Source: Eubacteriales bacterium
GTDB taxonomy: Bacteria > Bacillota > Clostridia > Oscillospirales > CAG-272
NCBI GenBank assembly: GCA_045536665.1
Contig: JAZSNX010000085.1
Location: 1 to 35,877 of the forward strand
Length of the DNA stretch: 35,877 nucleotides
Reading direction: 5' to 3'
Shown: positions 86-26,514 of the stretch, one piece after another
Position numbering within the stretch: the stretch's first letter is position 1
How the letters are laid out: every line of letters begins with the position of its first letter
Translations under genes and position numbers: made by a program
The notes under the pieces: generated by a model
The model's input: only the letters and a program-made list of their open reading frames with translations
Told to the model about the DNA's origin: nothing
Databases searched by the model: none

Positions 86-125
86 GCTTATTTTTTCTCG
101 TAAGATAAACGACAGACTCGACGTG
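86..125 (-). repeat. Displaced, decayed copy of the rlmD 3' coding end (att-like direct repeat, distal copy)
   Basis: The minus strand reads ..THVESVVYLTRK.., against the real RlmD C-terminus ..GHVESVVCLSRK* at 2810-2844. Codons align without gaps and roughly three quarters of the nucleotides are identical. There is no rlmD body upstream of it. Confidence 0.6.
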
Positions 126-229
126 GGTCAAGAGAGCAAAAGGTCTCATTTTAGCCGAAAAACGGGGGTTGTAAGTGCAAAAAGTCTCAATTTTTAGAGT
201 TGGAATGCAATATTGGTCCAAAATCGATA

Positions 230-1840
230 TTACATTTTATCACTTTTCCCCATATTACATCTATCGCAAAGTGTTCTTAAATTGCCCGCAACTGTTTGTC
301 CGCCCTTGGAAACGGGAATTATATGATCTACATGCAATTTAACTCCATCTTGGGCATTAGAGCCACATATTTGACATCGGAAATTATCGCGCTTTAAAAT
401 ATCATATCTTAAAGAGTTTGTCATTTTAGCACGTTCTACTTCGATTTGGTGTTGTCGTGTTTGGCGTTGTTTTTTGGCCTCAATCGTCTCCTTAAAAATA
501 CTTTCCAATTCTCCATAATAAAAACTACGATCTTTCCAATAATGGTTTCGCCCTTGCGGAGATATGTATGTAGCTTTGCAATATATCTCCACATTTACTT
601 GTGGTTCTTTTAATATTTTCTTTTTAAAAATCCGTTCCTCATATTTCAAAAAATTGGTTATAGTAAATCCAAAAGATTGGCAAAATTCTTCAGTAGCACT
701 CGATTTAATATTGCGCACTTGATTAATATATTTGTTATATTCTTTTTTATTTGAGGAAATTGTTTGGATTATGCTACGATAAAATGACTCATTTGAATCA
801 ATTAATGATACCAAATAATCATACAAAGACAAATTATCCAACTGCCTTTTTGAATTGCAGGTCGTATGATTTGTATATTTGGATTGTAATGTTGTAAAAT
901 GTGTGGTGCTGTTTAAAGAAAGTAACGCATTGATTTTTTCACTTTTTTCAGCAACAATCTTTTTATTCTTATAGTCAATAATTAAAAACACACAAAGAAC
1001 GATTATAACAATACCGACAACAATACTCGCTATAATTGAACCAATATTAACATTGTTTTGAGGTTGCTCAATATCCGTGCTAGTAGTGTTTGCTTCATCT
1101 TCTATAACATTGCTAATTGAGCTTTCTTCTTTGAGAATGTGTTCAATACTTGAAATTGGTTTGATTGAATATTGTGCCCATGCTGATTGTTGGTACGTTT
1201 CAACGGCATCGTCAAGCACATACACCGTGAAAGAGGGGTGTACTTTAGTTTGCCAATATTCCGATGGAGTTTGATTAAATATATCTCCAATACTAGGCGG
1301 AGTTGGATTATAAATTACCAGTGTTGTTAGATTTCCGCACCCTTCAAAAACGCCGTTCCCAAAGCTTTCAAAACTACAAGGAACAATTACTGTTGATAAA
1401 TTGCTACACTTAAAGAAAGCCATATCATCAATTCTTTTTAAGTTCCCGTCTTTTGGAAATTCGACTCTTTCTAAATTTCCCATGGAGTGTCCGTCTCTTC
1501 CAGCAAAAGTCCACGAATTGATAGCTACTAAATTTTTAGATCCTATAAGCTCAGTAATTCCTCTTCCAAAGCTACTTCCCATATAACCTATCGCTATGAT
1601 TGGCTTTTTTTCATAGGTTTCGGGTATTTGTAGAACGCCTTCATACTTGTTAGACGAGAATAATCCTGTCAATATTTTCTGTGACATTTCATATCCGCCT
1701 TCAATTTCTTCAAAATCAAACTTATCATAGTCAAATTTGTCAGTATTATCATCGGAGATTTCAACGGCACAGCCAGCTAAACTTATTAAAACAATTAGAA
1801 TGCAGAGAATTAAATATATTAGTTTTGATTTTCTTTTCAT
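230..1840 (-). CDS. Membrane-anchored LRR-TM-HNH protein: lipoprotein signal, BspA-type leucine-rich-repeat ectodomain, one TM helix, unassigned cytosolic domain, C-terminal HNH (beta-beta-alpha-Me) nuclease
   Basis: The tracked ORF is 230..1855. The preferred start is the ATG at 1840 (MKRKSK), preceded by a GGAG; 1855 is a TTG. The signal/lipobox is LIVLISLAGC. LRR units include NLERVEFP..LKRIDDMAFFKCSNLSTVIVPCSFESFGNGVFEGCGNLTTLVI. The TM helix IGSIIASIVVGIVIIVLCVFLII is followed by YKNKK (positive-inside). The HNH motif is CQICG..HVDHIIP..GNLRTLCDRCN. Confidence 0.8.
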   Translation of the reverse strand: MKRKSKLIYLILCILIVLISLAGCAVEISDDNTDKFDYDKFDFEEIEGGYEMSQKILTGLFSSNKYEGVLQIPETYEKKPIIAIGYMGSSFGRGITELIGSKNLVAINSWTFAGRDGHSMGNLERVEFPKDGNLKRIDDMAFFKCSNLSTVIVPCSFESFGNGVFEGCGNLTTLVIYNPTPPSIGDIFNQTPSEYWQTKVHPSFTVYVLDDAVETYQQSAWAQYSIKPISSIEHILKEESSISNVIEDEANTTSTDIEQPQNNVNIGSIIASIVVGIVIIVLCVFLIIDYKNKKIVAEKSEKINALLSLNSTTHFTTLQSKYTNHTTCNSKRQLDNLSLYDYLVSLIDSNESFYRSIIQTISSNKKEYNKYINQVRNIKSSATEEFCQSFGFTITNFLKYEERIFKKKILKEPQVNVEIYCKATYISPQGRNHYWKDRSFYYGELESIFKETIEAKKQRQTRQHQIEVERAKMTNSLRYDILKRDNFRCQICGSNAQDGVKLHVDHIIPVSKGGQTVAGNLRTLCDRCNMGKSDKM

Positions 1841-1895
1841 TTTTACACGCTCCAATTTTAAAACTGCGCCTTAATGAAATAAGCGAAAACATATA

Positions 1896-2516
1896 TTACG
1901 CCAATTCAATATACTGTGGTTTAATATGCCATTCACCGCAGTGCAATGTTAGATCTATTGCTCCTTTTGGAAGCAAGTTATTTGTTAAAACAAACCTAAA
2001 TTCATTTTGGTTATTGTGTTTCGCATCATGTATGAATAATGGGTCAACAAAATTATGTATTTTTGTGAGCCATGAATCATCTTGTAATTTATCAAAATCA
2101 TAGTAGATTATTTTTTCTCCACGTATTCCCCAATTATCTTCCTTAACCCCTTCGCTAATCAGCCGAAAAAGTTCATCCGTATCGAAATATACCAGATGCC
2201 TTCCTAATATCTTGTTTTCAGGAGGAATTAGAATGGTCAGTTTACCTTCGTCATAAACCGCATTGTTTTGGTTGATTGAAGTGCAACAAAATAAGGGTAC
2301 ACGTAAAGTTTCATCATACGATTGGTAATAAGGATTTGGCACTTGAATGTTCTCTATATAGCAAGGATGGGTATAAATAGGGACAGTACCTTCTGAATAT
2401 TGTCGCTGATTATCCCTTTCATTCATAAACCTGCCAGCGGCACTGAAATATATGTTACCCTCTATAAAACCATCTGCATGGTCTTTTTCTTTGAATATCT
2501 TATAACATAGTGGCAT
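1896..2516 (-). CDS. Hypothetical cytosolic protein (206 aa), upstream partner of the LRR-TM-HNH gene
   Basis: Clean ORF with an AAGGAA RBS and AT-rich codon usage like its neighbour, separated from it by 55 nt. It has no TM segment or signal peptide and no catalytic motif I can assign. There is only a weak DUF2971-like flavour (IYFSAAGRFMNERD near the N-terminus, NEFRFVL near the C-terminus), and this is unverified. Confidence 0.6.
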   Translation of the reverse strand: MPLCYKIFKEKDHADGFIEGNIYFSAAGRFMNERDNQRQYSEGTVPIYTHPCYIENIQVPNPYYQSYDETLRVPLFCCTSINQNNAVYDEGKLTILIPPENKILGRHLVYFDTDELFRLISEGVKEDNWGIRGEKIIYYDFDKLQDDSWLTKIHNFVDPLFIHDAKHNNQNEFRFVLTNNLLPKGAIDLTLHCGEWHIKPQYIELA

Positions 2517-2807
2517 ATAATTGTTCCTTTTTCGTTGTATTTTTGTATTTAATCGGTACGTGGAAACATATCAACGGATGTTTTTTATCTGAAATTTTGC
2601 GTTTTTGCAAAAAATGTGCAATTTCAAGGCAAAAACAGAGGTTTTTCCCAATATGTTTCCCAAAACTGCTGTATTTTGATTTTCGACCATAGGTTGAAAA
2701 TCACATTTGTCCCTATGTTAAAAATCGTTAAAACACGAAAAAGAACACCTGTTTTATCGAAAAATGCGCTCAAAAGGCTGAAAAATGCCCATTTTAGTGT
2801 CAAAATC

Positions 2808-2844
2808 GCTTATTTTCGTGACAGACAAACGACCGACTCGACAT
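2808..2844 (-). repeat. Proximal copy of the att-like direct repeat (the functional rlmD 3' end including the stop codon)
   Basis: Matches 86-125 (see that feature). The GC drop begins immediately after the rlmD stop codon at 2810-2812. Confidence 0.6.
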
Positions 2845-4165
2845 GTCCTGTACGGGGGAACATATCAACCGGCTGAACGCTGCCTATCTTGTAACCCGCC
2901 TCTTTGAACCACGCGCAGTCGCGGGCGAGTGTTGTCGGGTCGCAGGAGACGTAGACGATTTTAGGTACGCCAAGAGATGAAAGACACTCCACAAGCTCCT
3001 TTGTGCTTCCCTTTCTCGGTGGGTCGATGATGACGACGTCAGGGCGCGCTCCGCCCATGGCGGTCAGTATATTTTGTGCGTTTCCTGCGTCCGCGCAGTA
3101 AAACTCGGCATTATCTATACCATTGTATTTTGCGTTTTGCTTAGCACATTCAACCGCTGACTGCACTATCTCGATACCAACAAGCTTTTTTGCTTTATCC
3201 GATACGGAAAGACCTATCGTGCCAGTGCCGCAGTAAAGGTCGGCGACCCTCTGTGTACCGTCAAGCTCCGCTTCTTTTGCCGCGAGTCCGTAAAGAAGCT
3301 CCGCTCCCTCTCGGTTGACCTGATAAAACGACTGCGCGGTTATGCGGAAGCGCAGACCGCAAAGCACGTCCTCTATGTAGTCTCTGCCGCGCAAAATACG
3401 ATATTCCTTGCCAAGCACGACGTTTGTATTCTCTGTATTGGTATTGAGCATAAGACTGACTATATTGGGGAAATCAGCCGTTATTTTTTCTGTTATTTCT
3501 TTCTCGCTCGGAAGCGCTCTGCCGTTTACCACGAGGCAGAGCATTATCTCGCCCGTAGCCTCTGCTATGCGCAGATAGATATGGCGCAAAAGTCCGTTGC
3601 CCGTATTTTCGTCGTACGCCTTTATACCGTATTCGTCGCAAATGCGGCAGACCGCGCCCGTGATAGCGGCAAAGGCGGGGTTTTGTATAGCGCAGTCGTC
3701 GACGGGAATGATATTATGCGTTTTTGACGCGTAAAAGCCCGACCTCATACCGTTCTTTGAGTTTGCCACGGGATATTGCGCTTTGTTTCGGTATCCCTTT
3801 ACCTTTTGAGTACTCATAACGGGCAGAACGTCGACGTCCGATAACCCCGCCTTTACAAAAGCGCTTTTAACAAAACCGTGCTTTATCTCAAGCTCGTGCT
3901 CGTAGGTGACGTGTCTGTATACGCACCCTCCGCAGGACAGAGGGGTATCGCACAGCTCGCTCTCCATTCTGTGAGCAGAGGGAGATAGCACCGTGTCAAG
4001 TCTTGCCACGGCGTAGCTTTTATTGTCCTTTATGACGAGCGCGCGTATCCTATCGCCGCTCACAGCTCCCTTGACGAACACTACCTTGCCGTCAAGCCGT
4101 CCGACTCCACAGCCGAGATTGTTTATATCACTTATTTCAAGCTCTATGATATCGCCCTTTTTCAT
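2810..4165 (-). CDS. rlmD: 23S rRNA (uracil-5-)-methyltransferase, RumA/RlmD family
   Basis: N-terminal TRAM-like domain (MKKGDIIELEISDINNLGCGVGRL), Fe-S cysteines (CDTPLSCGGCVYRH), SAM motif DLYCGTGTIGL, and C-terminal VYVSCDPTTLARD. Confidence 0.9.
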   Translation of the reverse strand: MKKGDIIELEISDINNLGCGVGRLDGKVVFVKGAVSGDRIRALVIKDNKSYAVARLDTVLSPSAHRMESELCDTPLSCGGCVYRHVTYEHELEIKHGFVKSAFVKAGLSDVDVLPVMSTQKVKGYRNKAQYPVANSKNGMRSGFYASKTHNIIPVDDCAIQNPAFAAITGAVCRICDEYGIKAYDENTGNGLLRHIYLRIAEATGEIMLCLVVNGRALPSEKEITEKITADFPNIVSLMLNTNTENTNVVLGKEYRILRGRDYIEDVLCGLRFRITAQSFYQVNREGAELLYGLAAKEAELDGTQRVADLYCGTGTIGLSVSDKAKKLVGIEIVQSAVECAKQNAKYNGIDNAEFYCADAGNAQNILTAMGGARPDVVIIDPPRKGSTKELVECLSSLGVPKIVYVSCDPTTLARDCAWFKEAGYKIGSVQPVDMFPRTGHVESVVCLSRK

Positions 4166-6378: not shown

Positions 6379-6582
6379 TTATTTTTCGGACGCAAGAAAA
6401 TCGTTGATCTGCTTTACGAGCGCGTCGGCATCAGTGCCGTGCACCATGCAAGCGTCCTCGATAGACTCGCCACGAGCCGAAGGACAACCGAGGCAGTGCA
6501 TACCGATAGCGAAGAAGAACTGCGCTGTTGCGGGAGCGGCGTCAAGAACGTCACCAATGATGGATTGCTTTGTTACCTGCAT
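6379..6582 (-). CDS. DUF1858 / hybrid-cluster-protein-associated redox disulfide domain protein (67 aa)
   Basis: IGDVL...P.TA..F...GMHCLGCP....ESIE.A...HG pattern typical of this small family. It has a strong RBS (AGGAGG). Confidence 0.75.
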   Translation of the reverse strand: MQVTKQSIIGDVLDAAPATAQFFFAIGMHCLGCPSARGESIEDACMVHGTDADALVKQINDFLASEK

Positions 6583-6623
6583 TATATTTACCTCCTATTT
6601 TTAGATATTATTATACACTATAT

Positions 6624-6652
6624 ATTATAAGGCTTATTTGCTCCTTTGTCAA
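6624..6652 (-). promoter_or_regulatory. Sigma-A type promoter for the DUF1858 gene
   Basis: The minus strand reads TTGACA (6647-6652), 17 nt, TATAAT (6624-6629). Confidence 0.6.
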
Positions 6653-6904
6653 TAATTTGCCTCGAAATGCCCTAAAAATTCATTAAATTAGTATTTGTAG
6701 GGGAGTTAGCTTCATCAAGCAGTAGGAGAGGCTATCAGTCTCCGATTTTTACAAAATCATCTGCAGACAGATCCTAATTTGAAAGTCTATTGCCATCGTA
6801 AGCATCTCCGGAGGATATCACAATAAGGAGTACTGCCTCATCGATGCCCCAATATTTTGTCGATTTGTGCAAATTGGAGAAAAAGAAAAATTTTCAAAAA
6901 AGTC

Positions 6905-7036
6905 TTGACAAGCTTTTTAAAAAAGTTTTCCACAGGCAAAAAAACTTTTTTTATTTTTTTGCCCTTGATTTTCAAGGTTTTCCACACAATCCACAGAGTT
7001 TTCCACAGGCTCAAAAAACTCAAAAAAGCTTGTCAA
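6905..7036. repeat. 132-bp module bounded by perfect 14-bp inverted repeats (TTGACAAGCTTTTT / AAAAAGCTTGTCAA)
   Basis: IR-L is at 6905-6918 and IR-R at 7023-7036; they are exact reverse complements. The interior is AT-rich and contains the DnaA-box-like sites. Confidence 0.7.
6926..7007 (+). promoter_or_regulatory. Cluster of four co-oriented DnaA-box-like 9-mers
   Basis: TTTTCCACA occurs at 6926-6934, 6978-6986 and 6999-7007, and CAATCCACA at 6987-6995 (consensus TTATCCACA). Two boxes sit in a roughly 22-bp direct repeat, AGTTTTCCACAGGC(T)CAAAAAAC. Confidence 0.6.
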
Positions 7037-7097
7037 TACCCAATTTGCGTCTTTTGTCAATTTTATATATTTTTACCAAAAATAAAAATTTGCAATT

Positions 7098-7120
7098 AAA
7101 AAAACCCCCATTTTGGGGGC
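7098..7120 (-). terminator. Rho-independent terminator downstream of aroK
   Basis: The minus strand reads CCCCCAAAATGGGGG followed by TTTTTTTAA. Confidence 0.7.
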
Positions 7121-7245
7121 TGAGTGGTGGAAGCGATTGTAAATCGAAAGTGTATTTGTAAACAAAATGTAACTAAATGGTTAATACATTTAATGGAAGG
7201 AATTTTCCTCTCATTCTCCTAAACGCAGATGTTTTTGTGACGTGT

Positions 7246-7743
7246 CTATTTTTCGGAGAGTGCATTTAAAACACGCTCAAGAGTTGTGGAAATCTCTGCG
7301 TTTTCAACGGATATAACGGTGTCCGCATAGCGCTCGTATAGCTCTTTTCGCTCGTTATACATATCCTCAAGCGTTTCTCCTTTGCGAATAACGACGCCTC
7401 TGTGAACGTAATCGCCAAGACGGGAGAGCATAGTCTCAAGTGATACCCTGAGATAAACTATTTTACCGAGCTTCGCAAGGCTTTGCATGGCTTCTTCGCC
7501 GTAAACGGCGCTTCCGCCCGTCGATATCACGGCTTTCGTATCTGTGACCGAGCCGCAGATCTCGTTTTCGATCTCAAGAAAGCCTTCGATCCCCTTTTGT
7601 TCAATTATTTCGTGCAGAAGCATGCCCTCCCTTTCCTGAATGAGAAGGTCGGTATCTATAAAACGGTAGCCGAGCTTTTTGGCGAGAAGCACTCCGAGCG
7701 TGCTCTTTCCGCACGACGGCATTCCTATGAGAATGATGGACAT
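7246..7743 (-). CDS. aroK: Shikimate kinase
   Basis: P-loop GMPSCGKST at the N-terminus, followed by RFIDTD and STGGSAV motifs. The length (165 aa) is typical. Confidence 0.9.
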   Translation of the reverse strand: MSIILIGMPSCGKSTLGVLLAKKLGYRFIDTDLLIQEREGMLLHEIIEQKGIEGFLEIENEICGSVTDTKAVISTGGSAVYGEEAMQSLAKLGKIVYLRVSLETMLSRLGDYVHRGVVIRKGETLEDMYNERKELYERYADTVISVENAEISTTLERVLNALSEK

Positions 7744-15673: not shown

Positions 15674-15712
15674 AAAAATAAAAGGGCAGTTTTGTTCTCC
15701 GCAAAACTGCCC
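15674..15712 (-). terminator. Expression-platform terminator of the ZTP riboswitch
   Basis: The minus strand reads GGGCAGTTTTGcggagaaCAAAACTGCCC followed by TTTTATTTTT, about 40 nt before the pflB ATG. The 5' arm overlaps the aptamer 3' end. Confidence 0.75.
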
Positions 15713-15783
15713 AGACGGTCGGCTTATTATTCTCGAGCTCCACGTAGGTCTCCCTACTATTTCCGTCAGTTACTCGGGAACTT
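15706..15783 (-). promoter_or_regulatory. ZTP (pfl motif) riboswitch aptamer in the pflB leader
   Basis: The minus-strand RNA reads ..CCCGAGUAACUGACGGAAAUAGUAGGGAGACCUACGUGGAGCUCGAG..(linker)..GCCGACCGUCUGGGCAG. It contains the conserved ACUGACGGA and CCGACCGUCUGGGC elements, and GACGG/CCGUC pseudoknot complementarity is visible. The genomic context (pfl) is the one that gave the motif its name. Confidence 0.8.
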
Positions 15784-17813: not shown

Positions 17814-20117
17814 ATGGAGTACAGTTTGAAGGAAGTCGCAGGAAGAATCAAAGATCTGCGCGAAGCAAAGGGATATACGCAGGAAGAGCTTGCAAAGCTC
17901 ACGGGTGTATCCGTTGAGGAATACCGTGTCCTTGAAAAGGGAGACACGGATTTTAGCTTTACTTTTATTTACAAGTGCGCAAAGGCTTGCGACGTTGAGG
18001 TCGTCGACCTGCTTGAGGGTCGAAGCTCGACGCTTACGTCCTTTGCTATTACGAGAAAGGGAGACGGACTTAAGATTGTCAAGAAGCACGGATTTGTTTA
18101 TAACAACCTTGCGCCCAAGTTCAAGGATAAGCTCGCAGAGCCGTTCCTCGTTAAGTTCCCGTATCTGCCTGAGGAGCAGAACGCTCCCATAAAGCTCAGC
18201 TCACATAACGGCCAGGAATTTGACGTTATCGTCAAGGGCTCTCTTAAGGTTCAGGTCGGAAATCACGTGGATATCCTTCACGAGGGCGACTCCATCTTCT
18301 ATAACAGCCTTATTCCCCACGGTATGATAGCCGTTAGCGAGGGTGGCTGTGAGTTCCACGCGGTCGTTCTTAATCCTCAGGACGGACTTGTAAGCGAGGA
18401 ATATCCCGAGGTGCCTTATACGACAGCTAAGGTCGTTGATAAGGAAGAGACCGAAACGAGGACCGTCGCCGACAATTTCGTGGAATCCTACTACGACGAA
18501 AACGGCGTATTCAACGGAATCAAGTTCAAGAATGACGATAAGTTCAACTTTGCGTTTGACTGCGTTGACGCTATCGCCGACAAGACTCCCGATAAGCTCG
18601 CGATGATGTGGGTCGCAAACGACAAGACCGATCGTAAGTTTACCTTTAAGGATATGAAGAAGTACTCCGCAAAGACGGCAAACTACTTCGAGTCGCTCGG
18701 AATAAAGAAGGGCGATACGGTAATGCTCGTCCTTAAGAGACACTATCAGTTCTGGTTCTGTATGCTCGCTCTCCATAAGATCGGCGCTATCGCTATCCCC
18801 GCTACAAACCAGCTCGTGGAGCACGACTTTGAGTACAGATACAAGGCGGCGGGCGTTAAGGCTATCGTTTGTACGGCAGACGGCGACGTATCCGCCGAGG
18901 CGGAAAAGGCAGCGGCGCACTTCCCCGGAATGCTCAAGATATTGGTTGGCGGCAAAAAGGACGGCTGGAATGACTTCAACGTTGAAATGGAGCGCTTTAG
19001 CACGCATTACTTCCGCACCGAGAGCACTCCCTGTGGCAACGATCCTATGCTTATGCTCTTTACGTCGGGTACTACTGGATATCCCCGTATCGCGACACAT
19101 TCCTATAAATACGCGCTCGGTCACTATCCCACCGCAAAGCATTGGCACAACGTAAATCCGAACGGCTTGCACTTCACTATTTCGGATACAGGCTGGGGTA
19201 AGGCTCTTTGGGGAAAGCTGTACGGTCAGTGGCTGTGCGAGGCGGGTATATTTACATATGACTTCGACAGATTCCATTCCGAGGATATCCTGCCGATGTT
19301 CGCGAAATATCATATCACAACGTTCTGCGCTCCCCCCACGATGTACCGCTTCTTTATAAAGGAGGATCTGTCAAAGTACGATCTCTCCTCTATCGAGTAC
19401 GCGACGACAGCCGGCGAGGCGCTCAACCCCGAGGTATTCAACCAGTTCAAGAAGGCGACGGGACTTACCATTATGGAAGGCTTCGGTCAGACCGAAACTA
19501 CTCTTTCTATCGCAAACTTCGTCGGCTCTACGCCCAAGATCGGTTCTATGGGAAGACCCAGTCCTCTTTATGACGTTGTGGTTCTTGATCCCGACGGCAA
19601 CGAGTGCAGTATCGGTGACACGGGTGAGATCTGTATCCGCACAAAGGACAGCGTTCCCTGCGGACTCTTTATCGGATACTATCTTGACAAGGAAAAGACC
19701 GAGGACGTTTGGCACGACGGATATTACCACACGGGTGATACCGCTACCATGGACGAGGACGGATATCTGTGGTACGTCGGACGTATCGACGACGTTATCA
19801 AATCGTCGGGATACCGTATCGGCCCGTTTGAGATAGAAAGCGTTATTATGGAGCTTCCATACGTTCTCGAATGCGCGGTCACTCCCGTTCCCGATGAGGT
19901 GCGCGGACAGATAGTAAAGGCGACTGTCGTGCTCGTTAAGGGCAAAGAGGGCAGCGACGCGCTCAAGAAGGAGATCCAGGAATACGTTAAGACGCACACC
20001 GCGCCTTATAAGTATCCGAGAATAGTTGAGTTTGTCGACGAGCTTCCCAAGACCATCAGCGGTAAGGTAAGACGTGTCGAGATCCGCAAAAACGATTTGG
20101 AAAAATTGCAGAAGTAA
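17814..20117 (+). CDS. Fusion protein: XRE-type HTH + cupin + AMP-forming medium-chain acyl-CoA synthetase (ACSM/MACS-like)
   Basis: The ATG at 17814 lies 9 nt after an AAAGGAG RBS. HTH: GYTQEELAKLTGVSVEEYRVLEKG. Cupin: GQEFDVIVKGSLKVQVGNHVDILHEGDSIFYNSLIPHGM. Adenylation motifs: FTSGTTGYPR, YHTGD, GRIDDVIKSSGYRIGPFEIES, PKTISGKVRR. Confidence 0.85.
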   Translation: MEYSLKEVAGRIKDLREAKGYTQEELAKLTGVSVEEYRVLEKGDTDFSFTFIYKCAKACDVEVVDLLEGRSSTLTSFAITRKGDGLKIVKKHGFVYNNLAPKFKDKLAEPFLVKFPYLPEEQNAPIKLSSHNGQEFDVIVKGSLKVQVGNHVDILHEGDSIFYNSLIPHGMIAVSEGGCEFHAVVLNPQDGLVSEEYPEVPYTTAKVVDKEETETRTVADNFVESYYDENGVFNGIKFKNDDKFNFAFDCVDAIADKTPDKLAMMWVANDKTDRKFTFKDMKKYSAKTANYFESLGIKKGDTVMLVLKRHYQFWFCMLALHKIGAIAIPATNQLVEHDFEYRYKAAGVKAIVCTADGDVSAEAEKAAAHFPGMLKILVGGKKDGWNDFNVEMERFSTHYFRTESTPCGNDPMLMLFTSGTTGYPRIATHSYKYALGHYPTAKHWHNVNPNGLHFTISDTGWGKALWGKLYGQWLCEAGIFTYDFDRFHSEDILPMFAKYHITTFCAPPTMYRFFIKEDLSKYDLSSIEYATTAGEALNPEVFNQFKKATGLTIMEGFGQTETTLSIANFVGSTPKIGSMGRPSPLYDVVVLDPDGNECSIGDTGEICIRTKDSVPCGLFIGYYLDKEKTEDVWHDGYYHTGDTATMDEDGYLWYVGRIDDVIKSSGYRIGPFEIESVIMELPYVLECAVTPVPDEVRGQIVKATVVLVKGKEGSDALKKEIQEYVKTHTAPYKYPRIVEFVDELPKTISGKVRRVEIRKNDLEKLQK

Positions 20118-20130
20118 ATAGCAAAATTTA

Positions 20131-20165
20131 AAATCGGCAGAGATATTGTTTCTTTGCCGATTTTA
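20131..20165 (+). terminator. Terminator after the acyl-CoA synthetase gene
   Basis: AATCGGCAGAGAtattgttTCTTTGCCGATT (one mismatch) followed by TTT. Confidence 0.6.
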
Positions 20166-20184
20166 TGTTATAATAAATTGGGTG

Positions 20185-20518
20185 ATGGAAATGGAAAAGT
20201 TTGAAAAAAGGAAAACCACGAGATTGCAAGGCTTTGATTATAACCGTACAGGTGCGTTTTTTCTTACGATATGCACCAAAGATAGGCGTTGCTTGCTCTT
20301 GACAGAGGACGCCGGTCCCTACAATACAAAACACAGAGCCCTCGAAGTTTGTCTCTACGTTCAAGCGATTTTGTAATAAAGAATACGGAGAAAACATTTG
20401 GCAATACCGTTCCAACGATCATATTATACGCAATCGCGCTGACTACGAGGAGCATTTGAGATATATACACGAGAATCCATTGCGCTGGCAATTTGATAAA
20501 TTGTACGTTGAAGAATAA
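20185..20518 (+). pseudogene. Internally deleted, frameshifted RAYT/IS200-like (Y1, HUH) transposase relic
   Basis: The N-terminal piece reads RLQGFDYNRTGAFFLTICTKDRRCLL (frame of 20185). The C-terminal piece reads FVSTFKRFCNKEYGENIWQYRSNDHIIRNRADYEEHLRYIHENPLRWQ in the +1 frame and ends at 20518. The HUH-containing middle (about 70 aa in intact homologues) is absent, and the usual YDH tyrosine reads NDH. Confidence 0.6.
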
Positions 20519-20529
20519 GGAGATATTCA

Positions 20530-21030
20530 ATGAAAAATCAATACAAAATAACAAAGGAATTGATGATGTCTTGGGCAAAGGAATATTATTTACAAGGTGT
20601 CTCAAACATCTTGTTGTTTGTTCTATGGGCTTTTGTCGGAATTATGGGAGCGGGATTCTTGTGTCTGTTTATAGCTGTTGGCGGAAGCTTGACGAGCATA
20701 GCTTTGTCGATATTTTTTATAGTTATATCGGTCTTTAAGTTGTTTTTTTCTCGCTTTTTTGTGTTGTCAAACAGATATAAGTTATATTCAAAAACTTATG
20801 GAGTCAGCGAATGGCTTCGTACGACGGAGTTTTGCGACGATCACATCGTTCTAACGGATCATAATTCGGTTACAAGAATGAAATACAGTAATATCAAAAA
20901 AATCGTAGAAAAAGATAACGTTGTTATGATATTTTTTAACAACAATCTGGCGGTAAGACTTTATAAAGATGCTTTCGTTGAGGGTAATTGGGACGAATGC
21001 AAGGCGAAGCTTAACAGTGTACATAAATAA
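20530..21030 (+). CDS. YcxB-like membrane protein (two TM helices plus a C-terminal bPH-like domain)
   Basis: Two hydrophobic helices (ILLFVLWAFVGIMGAGFLCLFIAV, SIALSIFFIVISVF) and a C-terminal ..DDHIVLTDHNSVTRMKYSNIKKIVEKDNVVMIFFNNNLAVRLYK.. pattern. The gene is AT-rich. Confidence 0.5.
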   Translation: MKNQYKITKELMMSWAKEYYLQGVSNILLFVLWAFVGIMGAGFLCLFIAVGGSLTSIALSIFFIVISVFKLFFSRFFVLSNRYKLYSKTYGVSEWLRTTEFCDDHIVLTDHNSVTRMKYSNIKKIVEKDNVVMIFFNNNLAVRLYKDAFVEGNWDECKAKLNSVHK

Positions 21031-24376: not shown

Positions 24377-25657
24377 TTATTTTTTGTACCAATAGCATTT
24401 GGAGTATTCATCCATGAATAGCGCTACGTTGTGCTCAGGGTCGGATACGTCTACTCTCTTAGGAAAGATAGTATACATATGTCTTATCTTCCAACCCTCG
24501 GGATTTTCAAACGTTATCTTTTTCAATGCGGTGCAGCCGTCAAAGGCGTTGTCTCCAATTTCAACGACGCCGTTGCCGAAAGTTACGCTTTCAAGATTAG
24601 GGCAATAGCTGAATGCGGCATACGATACAGTCTCAACGCTATCGGGAAGCGTGAGTGTTGTAAGAGACGAGCAAAAGCCGAACGCCTGACCGCCTATGTG
24701 CTTTAGTCCGTTCCCCAGAGAAATGCTGCGTAGTCCTTCGCAATGGATAAATGCCGAGTGATCGATCTCCTCAACACTGTCGGGGAGAGTGATATGTGTT
24801 AGCTTTTTGGCATTTTCAAAAGCATAGCGGTCAATGATAACAGTACCGTCGGGTACTTGATAGTCGGTAGTATCCTGAGCTGCCGCATACTTTATAAGAC
24901 GTGTGCCATCACGTGAAAACAGACTTCCGTTTACCGATCTATAGCTCGTGTTTTCATCGGACACGGTGATCTTTTGAATGGAATCGCAGGATTCAAATAC
25001 CATAGTTCCTATTGATTCTACGGTTTTGGGAATATGTATCGTTTTGATATATGAGCAGTACTCAAACGCAAAGCTTCCAATCGATATTACTCCGTCGGGA
25101 ATGGCGAGCTCTCGCAGCTGATTACAGCGATCCAGCGCGCCTCCGCAAATAATGACTGTGTCGGGATGTATCGTGATATCGCCTATGCCTGTCGATGAGG
25201 CACAAGCCAAGGCATAATAGGGGTTATCCACAGTTCCGACGTAACAGCCGTTTTTGTATTCATTATAGGTCATTTTATCGCAAAATGAAAATATGTGAGT
25301 ATCTATTTCACGAATTCCGCTACCTAAGGTGACGCGCTCCAATGCGTAACATTTGCTGAACACGAAGCTTTCTATTTTGATAACACTGTCGGGAAACGTT
25401 ACCGATATTACGTTGTCGCAGTATTGAAATGCCGACCCACCGATGACGGTGACAGGCATTCCTTTGATGCTTTCGGGTATAGAAACGTCCGTATCTGCAC
25501 CCGTATACTTGGTTATCGTCACCTCGTTGTTTTCAACGGTATATTGGTAATTATCATACGTATATTCCTTTTTTTGGTTTGAACAGGACGATAAACAAAA
25601 TATGCACGAGGTCAATATTAAGACCAATAACAACAAAACGGAGAGTATTCTTTTCAT
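24377..25657 (-). CDS. BspA-type leucine-rich-repeat surface lipoprotein
   Basis: Signal/lipobox LILTSCIFCLSSC. It contains more than 10 repeats of the pattern IP.SV..IG..AF..C..L..I. Confidence 0.8.
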   Translation of the reverse strand: MKRILSVLLLLVLILTSCIFCLSSCSNQKKEYTYDNYQYTVENNEVTITKYTGADTDVSIPESIKGMPVTVIGGSAFQYCDNVISVTFPDSVIKIESFVFSKCYALERVTLGSGIREIDTHIFSFCDKMTYNEYKNGCYVGTVDNPYYALACASSTGIGDITIHPDTVIICGGALDRCNQLRELAIPDGVISIGSFAFEYCSYIKTIHIPKTVESIGTMVFESCDSIQKITVSDENTSYRSVNGSLFSRDGTRLIKYAAAQDTTDYQVPDGTVIIDRYAFENAKKLTHITLPDSVEEIDHSAFIHCEGLRSISLGNGLKHIGGQAFGFCSSLTTLTLPDSVETVSYAAFSYCPNLESVTFGNGVVEIGDNAFDGCTALKKITFENPEGWKIRHMYTIFPKRVDVSDPEHNVALFMDEYSKCYWYKK

Positions 25658-25691
25658 TGTTCTTACTTCCTTTCGTCAATACTACACCTTA

Positions 25692-25720
25692 AGTATATCA
25701 TAACGGCAGATGTTTGTCAA
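25692..25720 (-). promoter_or_regulatory. Promoter for the LRR lipoprotein gene
   Basis: The minus strand reads TTGACA (25715-25720), 17 nt, TATACT (25692-25697). Confidence 0.55.
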
Positions 25721-25746
25721 TAGACCGCAACCAATAGTTGAGATGC

Positions 25747-26514
25747 TCACTTATTCAAATAGTACTTGCGAAATTCAGTCGGACTCATACCCGAATAGCG
25801 GCGAAACGCGTTGGCAAAATAATATGGATTTGAATATCCGCACATTTCGGATATCTGAGTTATACTGTAAGGGTAATTGAGCAAAAGGCTTTTTGCGTTT
25901 TGCAGTCTTAGCATACTTAAATAATTTGACGGTGTTGTGCCGAGCTCTTGTCTGAATTTCCAAATGAGTCCCGAATGGCTCAAAAACACTTGCTTTGCAA
26001 GCTCGTCCATATCTATTTTTTTATTCAAATTGTTTCTCATATACCTTGTGGCAATTTCAATTTCCTTGCTGAAGGGCCGGGTTTTGGCTTTGCTTTTGTT
26101 ACCAAAAAGATAATTTTCAGCAAAGATATGCTTCAATATATGCGTTATCAGCACACGGTTGTCCGAGCGAAAAAAAGCATGCTTCATGCTTTCAAATATT
26201 GCCTCGCTCTGCTCGGTGGGTATATTTATCTTTCCGCAGCTTGCCGAAAGATAAAACGGATGGTCTGCCTGAGCGAAAAATTCCATATTGTAGCACGTCA
26301 AGGTCTTTGTGACTTTTCGCTCAAATTCAAGCCCCGCGGGCATAAACGCAATTTCGTTTTTTGATACGGTTACCGTTTTTTGCTCTTTTTTAAATGATAT
26401 CGTGCATTCTCCCTCTAGCACCATTATCAGCATATCCCAATTGTTTTTAGCTGACATCAGCTTGAATTGCTCAAAGCTCTCTCGATAGGTTTGTGTTATA
26501 AGCTCTATTTGCAT
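25747..26514 (-). CDS. AraC family transcriptional regulator (cupin-like N-terminus plus HTH_18)
   Basis: C-terminal double HTH ending ..GYSNPYYFANAFRRYSGMSPTEFRK. It is divergent from the MATE gene. Confidence 0.85.
   Translation of the reverse strand: MQIELITQTYRESFEQFKLMSAKNNWDMLIMVLEGECTISFKKEQKTVTVSKNEIAFMPAGLEFERKVTKTLTCYNMEFFAQADHPFYLSASCGKINIPTEQSEAIFESMKHAFFRSDNRVLITHILKHIFAENYLFGNKSKAKTRPFSKEIEIATRYMRNNLNKKIDMDELAKQVFLSHSGLIWKFRQELGTTPSNYLSMLRLQNAKSLLLNYPYSITQISEMCGYSNPYYFANAFRRYSGMSPTEFRKYYLNK

Follow-up and report, generated by a model that had tools for sequence, protein, structure and literature searches.

What is the function of a bacterial protein that pairs a surface-type leucine-rich repeat (LRR) domain with a DNA-cutting enzyme in a single polypeptide? 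The question is raised by a gene at positions 230-1840 of the minus strand of a 35,877-nucleotide contig (JAZSNX010000085.1, assembly GCA_045536665.1) from a Eubacteriales bacterium of the CAG-272 lineage; the whole contig is referred to here as the window. The gene encodes a predicted lipoprotein with a BspA-type LRR ectodomain, one transmembrane (TM) helix and a cytosolic HNH nuclease. The explanation that we favour, and to which we give about an even chance, is a defence nuclease stationed at the site of phage entry, comparable to the Escherichia coli protein SNIPE, in which the LRR domain would act as an extracellular adapter.

Architecture and topology of the LRR-TM-HNH protein

The gene and the parts of its product are as follows.

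230..1840, minus strand: LRR-TM-HNH nuclease gene, 536 aa plus stop codon, ATG at 1840
1769..1840, minus strand: signal peptide with lipobox L-A-G-C (Cys24), residues 1-24, read from the sequence
1151..1723, minus strand: BspA-type LRR ectodomain, residues 40-230 (Pfam LRR_5, AlphaFold2, Foldseek)
1046..1150, minus strand: juxtamembrane linker, residues 231-265, of which 247-264 are predicted to be disordered (predicted local distance difference test score, pLDDT, <50)
977..1045, minus strand: single TM helix, residues 266-288, predicted N-out/C-in (hydropathy, flank charges)
419..976, minus strand: cytosolic middle domain and long connecting helix, residues 289-474 (186 aa; AlphaFold2), without a Pfam, PDB or BFVD relative
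233..418, minus strand: Cys4 HNH (beta-beta-alpha-Me) nuclease, residues 475-536 (Pfam HNH/HNH_5, Foldseek, conserved motif)

A GGAG sequence is located 9 nt 5' of the ATG. The open reading frame is not a chance product, because homologues of 49-93% identity (P0001-P0005) share its full architecture. The exact query protein has no record in the assembly index. The protein begins with MKRKSK, followed by a hydrophobic core and L-A-G-C24, which fits the lipobox pattern [LVI][ASTVI][GAS]C and thus predicts a lipoprotein. Lipoboxes were found as well in P0001, P0002, P0004, P0006, P0008 and P0044.

The full-length AlphaFold model, based on a 58-sequence alignment, has a pLDDT of 88.5. It comprises a signal helix, an LRR solenoid, a disordered linker and a TM helix that continues into a helical cytosolic domain. 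The solenoid (residues 40-230) is confidently predicted, with pLDDT mostly above 90, and Pfam LRR_5 (BspA type, Pfam accession PF13306) matches residues 96-178 with 37.6 bits against a cutoff of 27.7. Foldseek relates the ectodomain to TpLRR and to BspA-type surface LRR proteins of gut bacteria (6mlx, E 9e-6; 4fs7, 4gt6 and 4cp6). The region outside the membrane is acidic, with an isoelectric point (pI) of 4.4 over residues 25-265.

The nuclease matches Pfam HNH (Pfam accession PF01844) over residues 489-534 (E 1.3e-13, 51.3 bits against a cutoff of 21.4). Its motif, C489-x2-C492 ... D505-H506 ... N520 ... C525-x2-C528-N529, is invariant or nearly so among 52 homologues.

Between the membrane and the nuclease lies a domain that resembles nothing in the collections searched. 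The model of residues 290-536 has a pLDDT of 93.6 and shows helices surrounding a three-stranded sheet, then a long helix (442-471) and the HNH domain. When this cytosolic part was compared with the PDB and BFVD by Foldseek, matches were confined to the HNH module of about 60 residues (Gme HNH 4h9d, EcoKMcrA 6ghc and phage HNH proteins). A PDB profile search likewise placed EcoKMcrA among the nearest solved relatives of the HNH part and gave no match for the middle region. The middle region also matched no family in a Pfam scan of 52 family members (E<=0.05) and had no match in an NCBIfam scan of the query. The domain is basic (pI 9.4, which is also the family median; pI above 8 in 62 of 73 members). 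Its conserved residues are S300, N310, F315, K331, N364, Y371, E401, the segment Y425-x-S-P-x-G-x-N-x-Y434, and R470. S300, directly after the TM helix, is present in 66 of 74 members.

Several lines of evidence place the nuclease in the cytoplasm. The TM helix has a Kyte-Doolittle maximum of 3.47 and is flanked by a net charge of -2 on its N-terminal side and +2 on its C-terminal side (DYKNKK...). We applied the positive-inside rule over the family by counting lysine and arginine in the 15 residues on either side of the helix. The mean is 4.1 after the helix and 0.7 before it, and the C-terminal side is the richer one in 62 of 63 proteins. In addition, all domains that family members have independently added N-terminal of the helix are of extracytoplasmic types. 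This charge bias and the restriction of extracytoplasmic modules to the N-terminal side indicate that the HNH domain is cytoplasmic, contrary to the extracellular placement that would have refuted the original prediction.

The original prediction, made from the nucleotide sequence without database searches, had described a lipoprotein signal, a BspA LRR domain, a single TM helix and a complete zinc-finger HNH motif, with the ectodomain outside and the nuclease inside the cell. Sequence, Pfam, AlphaFold and Foldseek agree with that architecture, the topology predictions agree with that orientation, and the catalytic residues prove to be conserved. Of the profile searches, Pfam recovers LRR_5 and HNH, and PADLOC yields nothing beyond generic HNH-level matches for the protein.

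A membrane-anchored nuclease family with a variable N-terminus

The protein belongs to an unnamed family. At its core, a single TM helix in N-out/C-in orientation follows an extracellular N-terminus that is short or variable; inside the cell come a basic domain of about 185 aa and, at the C-terminus, the Cys4 HNH domain. The full architecture with the LRR ectodomain is confined to a handful of proteins (P0001-P0005; L005, L007 and L010). Far more numerous are relatives about 270 aa long whose match is limited to residues 266-536; they have a TM helix at the N-terminus, followed by the middle region and the HNH domain.

We scanned 185,579 species-representative genomes, one per species, and found at most 355 matching stretches, of which the best 80 loci were kept. 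The distribution is patchy and extends over several phyla. Hosts among the best 80 loci include gut Clostridia (Christensenellales, Oscillospiraceae and Lachnospiraceae), Bacilli, Izemoplasmatales, Gastranaerophilales and Saccharibacteria, and one host metagenome-assembled genome (MAG) among them carries a methanogen label. Melainabacteria are also among the groups that carry the family. Full-library HMMER counts are dominated by LRR and HNH proteins and are unusable for sizing the family. In 44 of 62 loci, the guanine-plus-cytosine (GC) content of the family gene is at least 5 points lower than that of its flanks; in none is it 5 or more points higher.

Conservation falls steeply from the C-terminus to the N-terminus (HNH nuclease 0.79, middle domain 0.38, ectodomain 0.04). 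In an alignment of 74 members, column occupancy is 95-100% for the middle and HNH domains, 85% for the TM helix and 10% for the ectodomain, so that about 90% of members are without an ectodomain. Proteins without one reach 72% identity to the cytosolic part of the query. Some near relatives retain remnants of the missing region. In P0012, the lipoprotein signal and the start of the ectodomain are followed directly by the TM helix, and P0009 and P0010 still have a signal-like helix and the juxtamembrane linker but no LRR between them. These three proteins look like LRR-deletion derivatives. Given such remnants and the ectodomain-less near relatives, closely related members appear to have gained and lost the LRR.

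Elsewhere in the family, the extracellular part is of another kind. L063 (7371-8714) encodes a signal peptide and a PG_binding_1 domain (E 3e-8), and L031 (7377-8744) encodes a weakly matching SH3_3 domain.

We also observed LRR-TM-middle-domain proteins that stop short of the HNH domain (P0006, P0007, P0044, P0162 and P0008, the last at L251:2023-3930). In the P0008-type variant, present on 7 contigs, about 240 aa of unrelated sequence stand in place of the C-terminal half, and a PDB sequence search with this region gave no match. These HNH-less LRR proteins may either have a swapped effector or be decayed copies.

The gene lies on a mobile islet with exchangeable cargo

The nuclease gene is part of a short islet for which the 3' end of an rlmD-like gene served as insertion site. 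The features of this region are as follows.

121..2865, minus strand: horizontally transferred islet, comprising a new rlmD 3' end, a spacer, a 206-aa gene, the nuclease gene and a conserved right end (identity contrast, GC)
2810..4165, minus strand: rlmD/rumA-like methyltransferase gene, with the islet inserted at its 3' end (PF05958 tRNA_U5-meth_tr on the corresponding genes of L167, L169 and L170)
2813..2845, minus strand: left copy of an att-like direct repeat (D1), formed by the last codons of the rlmD-like gene
93..125, minus strand: right copy of the direct repeat, a displaced pseudo-3' end of rlmD, which reads HVESVVYLTRKK*
1896..2516, minus strand: 206-aa near-orphan gene, 55 nt upstream of the nuclease gene

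GC content is 33% over positions 1-2700 and about 50% beyond. The interval 2865..121 is 92.9% identical to L007, a sheep-colon Clostridia MAG, whereas the adjoining rlmD-like gene and the genes upstream of it are only 66-67% identical. Two further contigs (L169 and L170) contain the islet at 91% identity. The contrast between islet and flanks, together with the copy of the rlmD 3' end that the islet brings along, indicates that it moves between species, as the original prediction of a horizontally acquired low-GC islet had held. The two copies of the repeat are imperfect, with 79% identity over 33 nt, and the right copy is conserved in L007, L167 and L168, again at the islet's right end. The 2.7-kb islet encodes no recombinase or integrase; between the rlmD-like gene and the right end there are only the 206-aa gene and the nuclease gene.

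The cargo of the islet varies. The 206-aa gene is constant in every copy observed, and it lies directly downstream of the rlmD-like gene wherever the upstream flank could be annotated by family (L167, L169 and L170). In L167 and L168, it is followed not by the nuclease gene but by a 365-aa protein and a convergent helix-turn-helix (HTH)-C5 DNA methyltransferase (PADLOC MTase_II, 5.6e-78), and the slot ends in the same right end of about 90 bp as the islet in the window. The 365-aa protein has no Pfam or PADLOC match, and we call it a putative restriction enzyme from its position beside the methyltransferase in L167. A slot that alternates between a putative restriction-modification (R-M) pair and an LRR-TM-HNH gene behaves as defence hotspots do.

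The 206-aa protein is not a dedicated partner of the nuclease. It has no Pfam, PADLOC or NCBIfam match and a weak match to phrog_26561, and it falls in only 6 clusters among 5.8 billion proteins. A tblastn search with this protein over 166 loci matched L007 alone. We found no conserved partner gene elsewhere in the family: the upstream genes of three relatives are unrelated by BLASTP, and all-against-all clustering of 539 neighbours gave no universal partner.

A scan of the islet for promoters and terminators was uninformative, with terminators near the shuffled expectation and promoters modestly above it. A second copy of rlmD codons, 20 nt long (2556-2575, 90% identical to 2850-2869), is located 40 nt upstream of the 206-aa gene and may be a trace of nested or serial insertion.

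Genomic context of the wider family

Some relatives are embedded in operons, of which one type recurs more clearly than any other. In five Gastranaerophilales loci (L047, 2178-6851; L051, L055, L074 and L030), the order is vWA, PP2C phosphatase, TM-HNH and Ser/Thr kinase, with gaps of 2-27 nt. These operons often include a TPR protein. In a Christensenellales genome (L038, 7920-11614), the order is TM-HNH, kinase, vWA and PP2C. The vWA and PP2C proteins beside the TM-HNH relatives matched no PADLOC model, and matches were at the level of the kinase only.

Another locus (L104, 6422-10623) encodes a TM-less relative between the holin and serine integrase genes of a prophage.

Other members reside at housekeeping loci (L034, 5752-11079; L039, L043, L057, L064, L065, L068 and L084), either between gyrB and gyrA or near dnaE in Oscillibacter. 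The MADS system was considered as a neighbour of these relatives and rejected: the PADLOC matches to mad3 and mad8 are to gyrB and gyrA themselves, and arise because family loci adjoin the gyrase genes.

Comparison with known systems

The closest analogue in layout is SNIPE (PD-lambda-1) of E. coli, whose N-terminus lies in the periplasm; after one TM helix, it continues in the cytoplasm with a DUF4041 domain and ends in a GIY-YIG nuclease (Saxton et al., Nature 2026; PMC13190303). DUF4041 binds DNA and probably also tape-measure proteins, and SNIPE cuts lambda DNA during injection (PMC13190303). Deletion of its TM helix is toxic and the chromosome is cut (PMC13190303). The defence is direct and non-abortive, and the N-terminal region, which is hypervariable in length and content, has been proposed to act as an adapter (PMC13190303).

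The likeness extends over several properties. In both, a single TM helix near the N-terminus, N-out (by prediction in the family described here), leads into a cytosolic middle domain for which DNA binding has been proposed, and the nuclease is C-terminal. Conservation falls in both from nuclease to middle domain to N-terminus, the N-terminal region varies widely in length and content, and both are encoded by solitary genes on mobile DNA. The original prediction knew of no described defence family with this architecture; SNIPE has since superseded that statement, as it shares the order of TM helix, middle domain and nuclease, although its domains are non-homologous and it has no LRR.

The two differ in their parts. 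SNIPE combines GIY-YIG with DUF4041, whereas the protein described here combines HNH, a member of another superfamily, with an unrelated middle domain. No SNIPE homologue with an extracellular LRR has been reported, and the hosts are enterobacteria in one case and gut Clostridia in the other. We recovered the SNIPE gene through a published primer and used a 53-sequence SNIPE alignment in hhalign. Homology was rejected, with nothing found by BLASTP and an hhalign probability of 0.2% (E 0.32). Pfam DUF4041 was absent from the query (E<=1) and from 52 relatives (E<=0.05), and there was no PADLOC match to PD-Lambda-1.

The operons described above resemble the TerY-P triad, which consists of vWA, PP2C phosphatase and Ser/Thr kinase proteins and for which the cited summary reports defence activity (Gao et al. 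2020, summarised in PMC7699616). The relatives are embedded with these same three domain types in two phyla and two gene orders. They differ in that a TM-HNH component is absent from the triad as described there, and the islet in the window encodes no vWA, PP2C or Ser/Thr kinase protein.

Other systems share single properties. McrA-type and other solitary HNH enzymes (EcoKMcrA 6ghc, Gme HNH 4h9d) are likewise encoded by solitary genes and have a C-terminal Cys4 HNH domain, but they differ in an unrelated N-terminal part, and those that are known lack a membrane anchor. AbiP of Lactococcus is described as a membrane-anchored, nucleic-acid-binding Abi protein (PMC13064643). By that description, it is comparable in having an N-terminal TM anchor, a cytosolic nucleic-acid-binding part, a Firmicute host and a single gene, but no nuclease domain is mentioned in it. 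Zorya and Kiwa are also membrane-localised and act at genome injection, but they are multi-gene systems with unrelated membrane components and gave no PADLOC matches to the nuclease protein. A match to PtuB of Septu (PtuAB; 4.3e-5) spans the HNH region only, and the islet encodes no PtuA ATPase.

A proposed entry-site nuclease and the competing explanations

Taken with the architecture, these comparisons suggest an anti-phage or anti-mobile-DNA enzyme in which an HNH nuclease is tethered to the cytosolic side of the membrane and kept apart from the nucleoid. Through its basic middle domain, the enzyme would bind DNA, phage entry proteins or both, and incoming DNA would be cut during its entry into the cell. 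In the subclade of the query, the N-terminal region has expanded into a lipid-anchored BspA-type LRR ectodomain. Most likely, this ectodomain would be an adapter that, by binding a host envelope component or a part of the phage tail, brings the enzyme to phage entry sites or keeps it there.

The defence role claimed in the original prediction is probable, because the islet slot alternates with a putative R-M pair, relatives lie in TerY-P-like operons and one relative lies in a prophage lysis-integrase region. Several observations weigh against an entry-site defence nuclease. The mechanism is drawn from SNIPE by analogy only, since the middle domain has no homology to DUF4041. No full-length family member was found among 50,697 GenBank phages or 72,556 PLSDB plasmids. 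The neighbour survey supports an association with defence in part: some relatives are near defence-type genes, but clear defence neighbours are a minority and most immediate neighbours are unrelated or housekeeping genes. An Oscillibacter clade has the GC content of its host and is stable in the arrangement rapZ-yvcK-whiA-[X]-C_GCAxxG-dnaE, and three loci adjoin gyrB/gyrA. The copies at the whiA-dnaE and gyrase loci look like long-term residents and could indicate a cellular role.

The original prediction saw in the LRR a sensor that switches the nuclease on. In such a transmembrane receptor, the LRR would bind a phage or envelope ligand, and clustering or a conformational change would activate the cytosolic HNH domain. 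The ectodomain is a genuine ligand-binding LRR fold, and other members bear envelope-binding ectodomains (PG_binding_1, SH3_3). Since one HNH domain on its own nicks a single strand, activation through dimerisation is mechanistically plausible. The family does not bear the sensor out: the great majority of members lack an ectodomain, some of them closely similar in the cytosolic part, and the LRR has apparently been deleted in P0009, P0010 and P0012. Also against it, an 18-residue linker predicted to be disordered precedes the TM helix, and the N-terminal lipid anchor and the TM helix would tie both ends of the LRR to the membrane. We thus regard a receptor as unlikely. Its strictest form, a one-polypeptide immune receptor whose LRR recognises a phage tail or adsorption ligand and whose clustering across the membrane switches on the HNH domain, is less likely again, and an LRR that serves as an obligatory on-switch is less likely than an adapter. 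An abortive-infection or suicide effector, in which an inactive anchored nuclease is released by membrane perturbation or phosphorylation and degrades both host and phage DNA, also strikes us as improbable. Tight packing in vWA-PP2C-Ser/Thr kinase operons in two phyla would fit such regulation, as would the conserved S300 after the TM helix, and AbiP, as described, offers a precedent. Kinase and phosphatase genes are nevertheless absent from the neighbourhood of most members, including the query, an immunity or antitoxin partner was not found, and the equivalent architecture of SNIPE gives direct, non-abortive defence (PMC13190303).

If the anchor were incidental, the protein could be a solitary type IV-like restriction enzyme whose middle domain reads a DNA modification. 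It is encoded by a solitary gene with a C-terminal HNH domain, EcoKMcrA (6ghc) is among its nearest solved relatives, it needs no methyltransferase and it alternates with an R-M pair at one hotspot. We find this quite improbable, as the resemblance to EcoKMcrA is limited to the HNH part, the middle domain matches no known modified-DNA reader (Foldseek against PDB and BFVD, Pfam), and the near-universal TM helix (85% occupancy) argues that anchoring is functional. A role outside defence is very unlikely in our view, whether as a housekeeping nuclease near the membrane (for example in DNA clearance or segregation) or as a selfish, free-standing HNH homing endonuclease. The copies in conserved whiA-dnaE and gyrB/gyrA loci at host GC would suit the former and the nuclease fold shared with phage HNH homing endonucleases the latter, but the family is patchy, occurs in AT-rich islets and alternates with an R-M pair, and homing endonucleases have no TM anchor or ectodomains. 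Finally, HNH toxins exist, and the signal peptide might point to an extracellular or contact-dependent toxin with its nuclease outside the cell. To this we give almost no credence: the positive-inside bias in 62 of 63 members and the extracytoplasmic modules N-terminal of the TM helix put the nuclease inside, a Cys4 zinc site suits the cytosol, and there is no conserved immunity gene among the neighbours.

Other features of the window

The window also includes the following features.

24377..25657, minus strand: host BspA-type LRR protein, 426 aa, with a lipoprotein-like signal ...LSSC (read from the sequence)
15702..15783, minus strand: ZMP/ZTP riboswitch, 56.8 bits
28216..28298, minus strand: tRNA-Leu gene

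The second LRR lipoprotein had been noted in the original prediction, which suggested that the nuclease ectodomain could be a decoy of a phage receptor. The lipoprotein is present as described. The two LRR regions are 33-38% identical over about 50 aa, a resemblance at the level of the repeat motif only, and the decoy idea is not borne out.

Additional low-GC patches occur at 6500-7500, 20000-21000 and 25500-26500 (0.37-0.39, compared with about 0.50) and may be further acquired segments.

Implications

The middle domain has a confidently predicted fold, to which no solved or viral structure is related. With a cargo slot that can be swapped and no integrase of its own, the small islet at the rlmD 3' end offers a compact model of defence-cargo exchange. 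The association with vWA-PP2C-kinase operons provides a candidate nuclease effector for TerY-P-like systems.

Were the receptor explanation true, the protein would be the bacterial equivalent of LRR receptors such as Toll-like receptors and plant receptor kinases, but with a DNA-cutting effector as its direct output. If instead the family consists of entry-site nucleases, then the stationing of a nuclease at the membrane, by which location separates self from non-self, would have arisen at least twice from unrelated parts, and this strategy would be widespread among Gram-positive gut anaerobes. Versions with an LRR, PG_binding_1 or SH3 domain would in that case be natural examples of the N-terminal adapter proposed for SNIPE, with recognisable ligand-binding folds.

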